Origin: Escherichia coli
GTDB lineage: Bacteria > Pseudomonadota > Gammaproteobacteria > Enterobacterales > Enterobacteriaceae
Strand: one strand, 5' to 3'
DNA: 9,131 nt
Assembly (NCBI RefSeq): GCF_003334785.1
Contig: NZ_QOWV01000034.1
Under the pieces are notes generated by a model. The model saw nothing but the letters and a program-made list of their open reading frames with translations. It made no database searches and was not told the origin of the DNA. The first letter of the stretch is position 1; every line of letters begins with the position of its first letter. Shown here piece by piece: positions 1 through 3,360 of this stretch. The translations under genes were made by a program, and so were the position numbers.

Positions 1-75
1 ATTCAGCGCAGTAGCTATCGCACGAATGCTCATTTTGGCTGACAAACCAGCTCGTATCTCCTCGCGCTCAGACAG

Positions 76-100
76 TGAACCGCCCCGGGAATCCTGGAGA
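76..100. repeat. Left terminal inverted repeat (IRL) of the IS element
   Basis: 25-bp sequence starting TGAAC, matching the reverse complement of 1361-1385 at 23/25 positions. Confidence 0.8.
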
Positions 101-129
101 CTAAACTTCCTGAGAAAGAGGTAAACAGG

Positions 130-456
130 ATGACTAAAAATACTCGTTTTTCCCCCGAAGTCCGTCAACGGGCAGTCCGTATGGTTCTGGAAAGTCAGAG
201 CGAATATGACTCACAATGGGCGACAATTTGTTCCATTGCTCCAAAGATTGGCTGTACGCCGGAGACTCTGCGTGTCTGGGTTCGCCAGCATGAGCGGGAT
301 ACCGGGGGCGGTGATGGTGGGCTCACCAGCGCTGAACGTCAGCGTCTGAAAGAGCTGGAACGTGAAAATCGTGAACTGCGCCGCAGTAACGATATCCTTC
401 GCCAGGCTTCCGCTTATTTTGCGAAGGCGGAGTTCGACCGCCTCTGGAAAAAATGA
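130..456 (+). CDS. IS3-family transposase OrfA (helix-turn-helix DNA-binding subunit with leucine-zipper-like C-terminus)
   Basis: 108-aa ORF. N-terminal HTH-like segment ([13 protein letters not shown]...[14 protein letters not shown]) and C-terminal heptad-like segment ([27 protein letters not shown]), as in IS3-family OrfA. Ends at the A6 slippery tract. Confidence 0.85.
448..456 (+). other. Candidate programmed -1 ribosomal frameshift / translational coupling site (A6 tract, AAAAAATGA) joining orfA and orfB
   Basis: A6 run at 448-453 directly before the overlapping ATGA. IS3-family elements commonly make an OrfAB fusion by -1 frameshifting on A-rich slippery sites. No downstream structure was evaluated. 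Confidence 0.4.
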
Positions 457-1343
457 TGCCACTGCTGGATAAGCTGCGTGAGCAGTACGGGGTCGGACCG
501 CTATGCAGCGAACTGCATATTGCCCCGTCAACGTATTACCACTGTCAGCAACAGCGACATCATCCGGATAAACGCAGTGCCCGTGCGCAGCGCGATGACT
601 GGCTGAAGAAAGAGATACAGCGCGTATACGATGAAAATCACAAGGTATACGGTGTGCGTAAAGTCTGGCGTCAGTTGTTACGGGAAGGTATCAGAGTGGC
701 CAGATGCACTGTGGCACGTCTCATGGCGGTTATGGGACTTGCCGGTGTTCTCCGGGGTAAAAAGGTCCGTACGACCATCAGCCGGAAAGCCGTTGCCGCA
801 GGCGACCGCGTAAACCGTCAGTTCGTGGCAGAACGACCTGACCAGCTGTGGGTGGCTGATTTTACTTACGTCAGCACATGGCAGGGCTTCGTCTATGTGG
901 CGTTTATCATTGATGTGTTTGCCGGATACATCGTGGGGTGGCGGGTCTCATCGTCTATGGAAACGACATTCGTGCTGGATGCGCTGGAGCAGGCGTTGTG
1001 GGCCCGTCGTCCGTCTGGCACCATCCATCACAGCGATAAAGGCTCTCAGTATGTGTCACTGGCCTATACGGAGCGACTAAAAGAAGCCGGATTACTGGCA
1101 TCAACAGGGAGTACAGGCGACTCGTATGACAACGCGATGGCGGAGAGCATCAATGGTCTTTACAAAGCGGAGGTAATACACCGTAAGAGCTGGAAAAACC
1201 GTGCAGAAGTGGAACTGGCCACACTAACGTGGGTGGACTGGTATAACAATCGACGATTGCTGGGAAGGCTGGGCCATACTCCTCCGGCAGAAGCAGAAAA
1301 AGCTTATTATGCTTCCATCGGAAACGATGATCTGGCAGCCTGA
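453..1343 (+). CDS. IS3-family transposase OrfB (DDE catalytic/integrase-core subunit)
   Basis: 296-aa ORF in the -1 frame relative to orfA. Candidate DDE residues in [16 protein letters not shown] and [13 protein letters not shown] (RNase-H-like transposase core). ATG at 453-455 overlaps orfA stop TGA at 454-456. Confidence 0.85.
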
Positions 1344-1360
1344 GTTCACAGATAAAACAC

Positions 1361-1385
1361 TCTCCAGGAAACCCGGGGCGGTTCA
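1361..1385. repeat. Right terminal inverted repeat (IRR) of the IS element
   Basis: Reverse complement TGAACCGCCCCGGGTTTCCTGGAGA pairs with 76-100; located 18 bp after the orfB stop codon (1341-1343). Confidence 0.8.
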
Positions 1386-1428
1386 TACTGTACGAAGAAA
1401 GAAACTACCGACTTCCGCGGAGATCACA

Positions 1429-1437
1429 TGGTAGAAT
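1429..1437 (+). promoter_or_regulatory. Candidate extended -10 promoter element (TGGTAGAAT) upstream of the 1507-2082 membrane protein gene
   Basis: TGnTAGAAT resembles an extended -10 (TG + TATAAT, 5/6 match) about 70 nt upstream of the ATG at 1507. No convincing -35. A GAGG Shine-Dalgarno lies about 6 nt before the ATG. Sequence-only guess. Confidence 0.25.
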
Positions 1438-1506
1438 GCTATGTGATAAAAAATGAGGTTGTGGTTGCCCGGGCCCAGATTGAAGTTCCCATAAGCTGAG
1501 GTTTTT

Positions 1507-2082: not shown

Positions 2083-2634
2083 TGCTGCAGCCAATGAAAA
2101 ATTCAGCAAGCTGACTGTCAAATATGCGATGTATAGCCGGTATCACCATCCAGTGTACGTTCTATAAGGGGGGGCGCTTGGAAAACGGGTAGAGTCAAGA
2201 TGTGGCGCGGTAATTTTACAGGTCAGGCATATCTGTTGCCGCCTCTTTCGATTGGCGGAGCCTTACTGTCCTGACCATAAATCCTGTTTCCACACCCCGC
2301 TCATCGAAGCGGACATGCGCTTCTAACACATCCGGCTCTCGGACAGAATCATGCCTTCGCCCACGGAAACCTCTGCGGGAGCTTCGGTGCATATTTTCAT
2401 GGAAGGGGATCACCCAATAACTTCCATCGAGATCGGGTCATAACGGCCAATCCGTGATCGAATAGAGCGGAATACGCACTCTGACGAACTGCTTACATTT
2501 AAACTAATTACAAACTATATAAATCCGCCTTGCTCATTCACAGGGTAGATATATTCTTACTTTTAATTTTATGTGTAATTAACTGATGACGAAAAATGAA
2601 TTGAACTGTAAATGCATATCTAAGTTTTTCATTC

Positions 2635-3360
2635 TTATGATGTACATAATACCTTAAAATTATCAACTAGCTGAGCATTAACCTCCATCTGACTAATCCC
2701 CCATAATGCGGCTAACTGTTTCTCTGCAATCCCACTATCCCATGGCATTAGTGGGTCATTACGAAACTTAGCAAATGGCCCATCTGTTTCTGTAAGAATG
2801 CGTGATTTGGGTATTTTCAAAACTAAGGCCTTACCCTTTATTGTATCGAGCATAGCAGGCCCCACTGAGAACCAGCATCCTAAATCAATTGCCCTTTCAA
2901 GCTGCTTAGGTGTTCCAGTGAACCAATGCAATATTGCCACCCCATCGATATTTTCAATCTCATCAAGCACCGCTGATGCACTTCCCCGACTATGGATAGT
3001 CATAATCTTGCCACCAGCCCGATTTACACTGTTGAGAATGTGTCGGAACACTTTCAATTGAATATCCCAATGTTCTTTAAATCCCTGTCCACCATCAAGC
3101 CCTATTTCCCCTACATACTTAGTTTCCGAAAGCAATGAATCAAACAGGTCTAACTCATGCGATCTTTGATGCGCGATTTGAGGATGTAGCCCAAGAGCAG
3201 TTCGGATTCGTTGACTTTCTTTAGCCAATAAAGAAGTACCATGCCATGCTTTAGGTGTTGTTGTCACCGACAGAATATAAGTCCCTCGACGTTTACTTTC
3301 TTCAGCCACGAGGTCTGGCCGAGGATATAAGTCTAGATGACAGTGCATATCGATGCTCAT
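2635..3360 (-). CDS. qatD: TatD-family metal-dependent hydrolase/DNase, QatD of a Qat defence system
   Basis: 241-aa ORF beginning MSIDMHCHLDLY (the HxH metal-binding motif that opens TatD-family TIM-barrel hydrolases), with further conserved His/Asp/Glu positions. ATGA start/stop overlap with the upstream QueC-like gene at 3357-3360. Last gene of the operon. Confidence 0.85.
   Translation of the reverse strand: MSIDMHCHLDLYPRPDLVAEESKRRGTYILSVTTTPKAWHGTSLLAKESQRIRTALGLHPQIAHQRSHELDLFDSLLSETKYVGEIGLDGGQGFKEHWDIQLKVFRHILNSVNRAGGKIMTIHSRGSASAVLDEIENIDGVAILHWFTGTPKQLERAIDLGCWFSVGPAMLDTIKGKALVLKIPKSRILTETDGPFAKFRNDPLMPWDSGIAEKQLAALWGISQMEVNAQLVDNFKVLCTS

Follow-up and report, generated by a model that had tools for sequence, protein, structure and literature searches.

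The gap between the CBASS effector gene and qatD

The window, the whole 9,131-nt stretch of Escherichia coli DNA analysed here, contains two convergent genes from neighbouring anti-phage operons, a CBASS cyclase/2TM-effector pair and QatABCD. The gene at 1507–2082 on the plus strand encodes a CBASS 2TM/SLATT effector (PADLOC PDLC00695, 273.6 bits) and that at 2635–3360 on the minus strand encodes QatD (322 bits). Between their stop codons lie 552 bp of noncoding DNA (2083–2634), a gap that a preliminary description, made from the sequence alone, had put at about 550 bp. All the features of the gap that it listed are present where it placed them, save for a 2-base offset of one stem. A G7 tract at 2168–2174 is the sole run of at least seven G or C in the window. 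The outer stem of a nested hairpin is an exact match (GGTCAGG at 2221–2227 with CCTGACC at 2270–2276), and the inner stem CCGCC/GGCGG also pairs exactly, at 2239–2243 with 2254–2258, 2 bases away from the position first noted. The GC-rich patch is visible as 55% GC in 2189–2387, compared with 42% in 2083–2167 and 28% in 2480–2634. A single ORF of at least 60 aa lies wholly inside the gap, at 2216–2413 on the minus strand (65 aa, GTG start).

The gap resolves completely into relics of four mobile elements plus native flanks:

2083–2167, plus strand: native 3′ flank of the CBASS 2TM/SLATT effector gene (85 bp, 42% GC), outside the former transposon
2168–2188, plus strand: outer 21 bp of a Tn3-family 38-bp terminal inverted repeat, GGGGGGGCGCTTGGAAAACGG, also the intron 3′ exon; includes the G7 tract 2168–2174
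2189–2387, minus strand: last 199 nt (3′ end) of a class F group II intron, E.c.F10a/b, from homology to an intact intron
2189–2305, minus strand: extended intron domain VI, ~115 nt, with the nested hairpin 2221–2276 as its distal arm, from MFE folds and covariation
2306–2338, minus strand: intron domain V, decayed, with three substitutions relative to the intact copy
2349–2387, minus strand: end of the RT/maturase gene, 12 codons and a TGA stop (PKLPQRFPWAKA, then stop), in frame with the intact protein end (...LPKLPQRLPWAKA, then stop)
2388–2445, plus strand: left terminal 58 bp of an ISEc12-like IS21-family element, starting TGCATATT... (TGCATATTTTCATGG...), from its match to ISEc12
2446–2479, plus strand: right terminal 34 bp of an ISSso4-type IS21-family element, ending ...GAATACGCA (...GAATAGAGCGGAATACGCA), from its match to ISSso4
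2480–2634, minus strand: AT-rich 3′ flank of qatD (28% GC), unique sequence

The Arg-rich 65-aa ORF, which the preliminary description had already regarded as spurious, was rejected as a gene because it crosses the junction between the IS21-family end and intron domains V–VI, runs out of frame with the RT/maturase gene (ltrA) and matched no NCBIfam family.

Flanks, surroundings and distribution

The left flank (2083–2167) accompanies the cyclase-effector module onto the E. coli IncF plasmid AP027407.1, which is 98.5% identical to window 2083–2288; no other homologues of this flank were found. On AP027407.1 (IncFIB/FII, conjugative; locus L006, 4001–4300), an intact CBASS cyclase and effector are followed by the repeat half and, next to it, the first 100 nt of the intron fragment, where an IS2 cuts it off at the position matching window 2288. 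The scar has thus travelled with the CBASS module. On the right, the qatD flank is contiguous with the ISSso4-type end in all 249 of the 249 E. coli genomes that have this qatD allele, and all it contains is a weak 19-nt imperfect inverted repeat (2505–2523 with 2563–2581), with no terminator-like site detected.

Several features lie outside the gap. A promoter and terminator scan found only one site, a terminator-like hairpin at 2030–2044 (TCGCCGGTCTGGCGA followed by TCATTTTTAC) within the last codons of the effector gene, which may be the real CBASS terminator. Within window 1–1506, an IS3-family element (ORFs 130–456 and 453–1343) ends at 1385 and carries an ALIL frameshift pseudoknot (RF01497, 411–527, 120 bits). 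This element has removed nearly all of the CBASS cyclase gene, leaving its last 114 nt (1386–1499), so the effector gene at 1507–2082 is an orphan in this strain; in CFT073 the cyclase is intact (442 aa). Upstream of qatA, GAGGTTGCT-type tandem repeats at 7414–7465 lie inside an ORF on the minus strand (7326–8447) and give a weak, spurious Rfam match to IS009. The alignment between the window and CFT073 breaks and overlaps at these repeats, implying a difference in repeat copy number, and the CFT073 counterpart of this gene is annotated as frameshifted.

At 99% identity or more, the whole gap occurs in 244 of 5426 complete E. coli genomes, among them CFT073 (in which window 2083 corresponds to 4296331), S88 and APEC O1. 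The island carrying this arrangement sits at different chromosomal positions among E. coli genomes, and RefSeq places no annotation within the gap in the carriers. This spread fits an inherited scar. About 488 further E. coli records, chromosomes and plasmids alike, share only 33–47 bp of the gap (about 2446–2480 of the window). As these short matches occur at up to 33 places per genome, part of the gap is repeated mobile DNA.

Searches for functional signals in the gap were negative. Rfam gave no match there when the whole window was searched at E ≤ 1 or at the gathering score, and when the gap was searched by itself at E ≤ 10 only a 14-bit echo of domain V appeared. No tRNA or tmRNA was found, and thus no integration-site tRNA, and no promoter or terminator match fell within 2083–2634.

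The GC-rich patch is the 3′ end of a group II intron

A sensitive BLASTN search of 2083–2445 against plasmids returned matches of 93.7–95.1% identity over 2165–2387 to regions of Buttiauxella and Xenorhabdus plasmids annotated as 'ltrA: group II intron reverse transcriptase/maturase'. The same search also returned many alpha-, beta- and gammaproteobacterial introns, and those of one planctomycete, at 73–80% identity. Over 2189–2387, the window is 95% identical to the intact Buttiauxella intron on pBTX_57 and 94% identical to the Xenorhabdus intron. The Buttiauxella intron is 1989 nt long and begins with GTGCG; the window aligns to its final 199 nt. It matches the Rfam model group-II-D1D4-4 at 104 bits, and its 464-aa ORF scores 347.5 bits against TIGR04416 (group II intron RT/maturase; cut-off 300). 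Homology to this RT/maturase-encoding intron, 95% over 2165–2387, identifies the fragment as a group II intron remnant. The preliminary description had offered the decayed 3′ end of a gene intact in relatives as the outcome of a BLASTN search that would refute its reading, and this describes well what the search returned: the fragment is intact elsewhere, on the Buttiauxella and Xenorhabdus plasmids.

Both limits of the fragment are sharp. When the 3′ ends of 11 related introns were aligned, homology stopped in all of them at ...CTCGACTCTAC, which corresponds to window 2189 (CTCTAC); this holds exactly for the nine that are more distant relatives. The 3′ splice site is therefore fixed. On the other side, the match to the intron breaks off precisely between 2387 and 2388, at the start of the ISEc12-like end.

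The domain V sequence, in intact form a 34-nt hairpin with an AGC triad, a 2-nt bulge and a tetraloop, is present at 2306–2338 on the minus strand, and the domain V of the relatives covaries. In the intact relative this domain (GAGCCGGAUGCGUUAGAAGCGCACGUCCGGUUC) gives an Rfam Intron_gpII score of 38.8 bits, just below the gathering score of 40; the window copy scores only 14.2 bits on a domain V model and yields no Intron_gpII match at E ≤ 10. Pair 32–58, which involves the partner of the catalytic-triad C, is C-C in the window copy only, among the aligned introns, and a further substitution in the window breaks domain VI pair 82–161. The window copy is thus decaying, with pair-breaking mutations and undetected by Rfam. 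Of the features of a functional intron, the 5′ GUGYG, domains I–IV and an intact protein ORF are all absent, as homology stops at 2387, and the window gives no D1–D4 Rfam match. Because it is without domains I–IV and an intron-encoded protein and has lost the pairing of the catalytic-triad C, the remaining piece would be unable to splice or move.

This intron lineage has left another 3′ fragment, truncated independently, on Enterobacter ludwigii IncFII plasmids (locus L022, 3001–3250; 91.5% identity). Its cut falls at a different point in ltrA, and past its 3′ end come the Tn3-type repeat half and, after that, unrelated DNA.

The nested hairpin belongs to intron domain VI

In MFE folds, domain VI carries a bulged A 7 nt before its 3′ end ...CUCUAC, in agreement with the expected A at 7–8 nt from an end in AY. 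The intact relative folds with a canonical domain V, and the nested hairpin forms the distal arm of its domain VI (z = −5.1). RNAalifold recovered the same structure from the 11 introns, with 13 compensatory pairs. Across this alignment, the 12 pairs of the hairpin as first described are paired in 88.6% of cells, compared with at most 50% when their partners are slid, and 6 of the 12 show changes on both sides, that is, compensatory ones. Their covariation score was reached by none of 500 shuffles, in an alignment of only 11 sequences with a structure derived from one of them. In the window itself, the hairpin region is more stable than shuffled sequence on both strands (z = −3.0 on the minus and −2.9 on the plus strand). 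Since the folds beat shuffles and the pairs are kept with compensatory changes, the hairpin stands above chance, and it is a genuine conserved RNA element that belongs to intron domain VI read on the minus strand.

As a role for the structure in its present place, the preliminary description had suggested a terminator or a structured small RNA. The hairpins might act as a bidirectional terminator or insulator lacking U-tracts between the convergent CBASS and qat operons, as the genes do converge, the stems are stable (the 160-nt domain V–VI segment 2189–2348 has an MFE of −57 kcal/mol) and the gap contains no canonical terminator for either operon. However, neither stem is followed by a T/U run, intact introns already possess the structure and use it in splicing, and the distance from the hairpin is 140 bp to the effector stop and 360 bp to the qatD stop. 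A hairpin with a T-run is moreover already present at the end of the effector gene (2030–2044), and the scan detected no terminator-like or promoter-like site in 2083–2634. We consider such a terminator very improbable.

A functional small RNA or cis-regulatory RNA on either strand, exapted from intron domains V–VI, is if anything slightly less probable still. In its favour, the region folds more stably than its shuffles whichever strand is read (z about −3), introns of this lineage do conserve the hairpin as an RNA structure, and the fragment has been kept in 244 genomes. Against this, no Rfam family matches at threshold in the gap, no promoter-like or terminator-like site brackets the region, and the window substitutions break pairs 32–58 and 82–161, which points to relaxed constraint. 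Intron ancestry explains the structure fully, and retention fits clonal or island inheritance: the ~99.6% conservation of the fragment among carriers is equally expected from recent shared ancestry.

The intron lies in a Tn3-family inverted repeat

Past the intron 3′ end, the window and the Buttiauxella and Xenorhabdus copies have ~21–24 nt in common, and further out all three differ. The two intact introns also have ~21 nt in common upstream of their 5′ ends. A composite empty site, made of the Buttiauxella 5′ exon and the window 3′ exon, matched at least 5000 plasmids, often several times each. On a Yersinia plasmid with three copies, the uninterrupted repeat reads GGGGTCCGCTTGGAAAACGGAAAATATCCTACGTTAAG, and two inverted copies 17 kb apart enclose a resolvase, a Tn3-family transposase and cargo genes. 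These two are full 38-bp copies with the same outer half, at 19809 (plus strand) and 37270 (minus strand) of Yersinia locus L023. Repeats of the pattern GGGG...ACGYTAAG are typical of the Tn3 family, and the repeat identified here has the length (~38 bp), the GGGG start, the ACGYTAAG end and the inverted pairing around a Tn3-family tnpA by which such repeats are recognized; the window itself holds only the outer 21 bp. The G7 tract is the GGGG terminus of this repeat, which ends at 2168. With this origin it is accounted for, and by itself it would not be significant.

On the Yersinia hibernica plasmid (L023, 19809–20096), two 38-bp Tn3-family repeats face each other ~210 bp apart, an arrangement suggestive of a transposon-derived miniature inverted-repeat element. 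The inner repeat of this facing pair is the exact variant that forms the 5′ exon of the Buttiauxella intron.

The same repeat half is found beyond the intron 3′ end in four independent contexts (the window, Buttiauxella, Xenorhabdus and E. ludwigii). This pattern of insertion sites suggests, with slightly less than even credence on our part, that the class F lineage comprising E.c.F10 and its Buttiauxella and Xenorhabdus relatives homes to a fixed position in the Tn3-family 38-bp repeat. A search for EBS1/IBS1 pairings that would prove retrohoming into the repeat turned up an A/U-rich loop at intron nt 214–222 (AAAUUU) capable of pairing with exon positions −1 to −5. The two intact introns differ there at a single position, which does not compensate for the difference between their exons, and the pairing carries no weight in our reading.

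Two IS21-family ends form a deletion remnant

The 92-bp segment at 2388–2479 starts with TG and ends with CA and contains neither istA nor istB. Its left part (2388–2445) is identical at 52 of 57 positions to the left end (IRL) of an intact ISEc12 (locus L011), a reference copy flanked by the 5-bp target duplication GTCGT. Its right part (2446–2479) is identical at all 34 positions to the ISSso4 right end (IRR), which lies directly downstream of istB in an intact copy (locus L002); 33–35 bp of this end occur in 733 E. coli records, at up to 33 places per genome. Compared with an IS21-family insertion sequence, which has istA and istB, TG...CA ends and a 4–8-bp target duplication, only the ends are present. 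No target duplication surrounds 2388–2479 (TTCGG on the left, CTCTG on the right), the exact 92-bp unit was not found outside this locus in E. coli genomes or plasmids, and its two ends bear the subterminal repeat motifs of two different IS21-family elements. Because of these four properties, namely no istA or istB, no target duplication, motifs of two elements and no copy elsewhere, we conclude that the segment is a deletion remnant and not an active miniature element.

An active, MITE-like miniature derived from IS21 and inserted as a unit would share the TG start and CA end of IS21-family elements and would have parallels in similar miniatures with abutted ends elsewhere (66 bp in L004; L009 and L010), and the evidence just given, together with the fact that the intron does not resume to the right of 2479, so that this is not a simple insertion, makes it about as improbable as an exapted RNA.

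Position 2446–2479 was also considered as the 5′ end of a group II intron, as its reverse complement starts with GTGCG, and was rejected because it is the ISSso4 right end that directly follows istB.

Miniatures built from related ends are found on other plasmids. Many E. coli plasmids carry a 66-bp miniature of ISSso4 IRL and IRR (locus L004, 3966–4036), and among the plasmid miniatures at L009 (3505–3600) and L010 (3509–3712) an ISEc12-like IRL is joined to an inverted ISSso4-like IRL. A 212-bp element on a Salmonella plasmid pairs an ISEc12-like left end with an ISSso4-like right end, as in the window, with a different internal junction. As this element has the same pairing of ends, it is conceivable that the ISEc12-like and ISSso4-like ends could instead come from one unsampled IS21-family element.

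A layered scar of successive mobile-element events

The third origin named in the preliminary description, a remnant of an older element or integration site, is the one borne out, as the gap holds remnants of four mobile elements. We are strongly confident that the gap is a non-functional scar of successive mobile-element events between two anti-phage operons on an E. coli selC-type island. The terminator, the exapted RNA and the active miniature have no positive support beyond fold stability, and they are disfavoured because of the pair-breaking mutations, the missing promoter and terminator signals and the lack of other copies. In the gap as a whole, the searches for an Rfam family, a tRNA, a terminator or a promoter returned no signal of function, and the sequence is consistent with a locus that would have no present role.

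Each piece is identified and its boundaries are exact, and the hairpin has its place in the distal arm of domain VI. We infer the following order of events. A Tn3-family transposon would have lain beside the CBASS module, its 38-bp inverted repeat reaching to 2168. Into this repeat, ~21 bp from the tip and on the minus strand, a class F group II intron would then have retrohomed. An ISEc12-like IS21-family element would have inserted into the 3′ end of the RT/maturase gene, at 2387/2388. Finally, deletion or recombination with an ISSso4-type element would have taken out the internal parts of both insertion sequences together with the 5′ 1.8 kb of the intron and the remaining transposon sequence, joining what was left to the qatD flank at 2479/2480. 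The order is not provable, because our searches found no genome in an intermediate state, with an intact transposon or an intact intron beside this CBASS module.

A scar of this kind accounts for the G7 tract, the hairpin and the step in GC content without a new RNA, and it shows CBASS and Qat modules made neighbours by transposon and insertion-sequence traffic. Its biological importance is small and the finding is an ordinary one; it serves as a worked example of how long 'noncoding' gaps between the modules of defence islands can be read as layered mobile-element scars.

Comparison with known elements

The main piece of the gap, the dead 3′ end of the intron, has been known since 2012. Leclercq & Cordaux (PLoS One 2012, PMC3522654) list 'E.c.F10a, NC_004431 4296437-4296613, -, 77% (D.a.I1)', a 177-bp class F fragment in the selC pathogenicity island of E. 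coli CFT073, and E.c.F10b as the same fragment in APEC O1 and S88 (PMC3522654). The coordinates in NC_004431 (minus strand) correspond to window 2189–2365, as do those given for NC_008563 and NC_011742. The catalogued and present fragments are the same sequence with an identical 3′ boundary; they differ in length, 177 bp in the catalogue and 199 bp here, where the 5′ boundary lies 22 nt further out (to 2387). The catalogue entry is shorter because the nearest reference at that time was only 77% similar, whereas a 95%-identical Buttiauxella intron is now available. Our analysis thus refines E.c.F10 by its 199-nt limits, an intact relative of 95% identity, its truncation at an IS21-family end and the Tn3-family repeat that is its 3′ exon and target.

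The class F-type introns of Buttiauxella sp. pBTX_57 (NZ_CP033075) and of the Xenorhabdus sp. TH1 plasmid (NZ_CP147735) resemble the window fragment at 94–95% identity across their final 199 nt. They agree with it in domain V, in the long domain VI with its nested hairpin, in the 3′ end CUCUAC and in having a Tn3-type inverted-repeat half as 3′ exon. Unlike the window fragment, the two plasmid introns are complete (1989 nt, with a 5′ GUGCG, domains I–IV and a 464-aa RT/maturase); of such an intron the window retains just the 3′ tenth, and this carries pair-breaking mutations. With ISEc12 and ISSso4 the window shares TG...CA ends of 58 bp (52/57 to the ISEc12 IRL) and 34 bp (34/34 to the ISSso4 IRR), but the window unit differs from both in having no istA, istB or target duplication and in taking its ends from two different elements.

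The one mildly novel aspect is that the intron lineage appears specific for the Tn3-family repeat. In the literature searched, we found no description of introns that target Tn3-family repeats; such cases may be recorded in the Zimmerly intron database. If the specificity is real, it would describe a retroelement riding on, and possibly disabling, transposon ends that are abundant on enterobacterial plasmids, and on confirmation this retroelement would join a short list of elements that parasitize transposon ends. IS4321 and IS5075 are the closest parallels, being mobile elements that prefer a fixed position inside the Tn3-family terminal inverted repeat, as the intron lineage would; they are DNA transposons, whereas the invader here is a group II intron retroelement, with its targeting suggested by four insertions.
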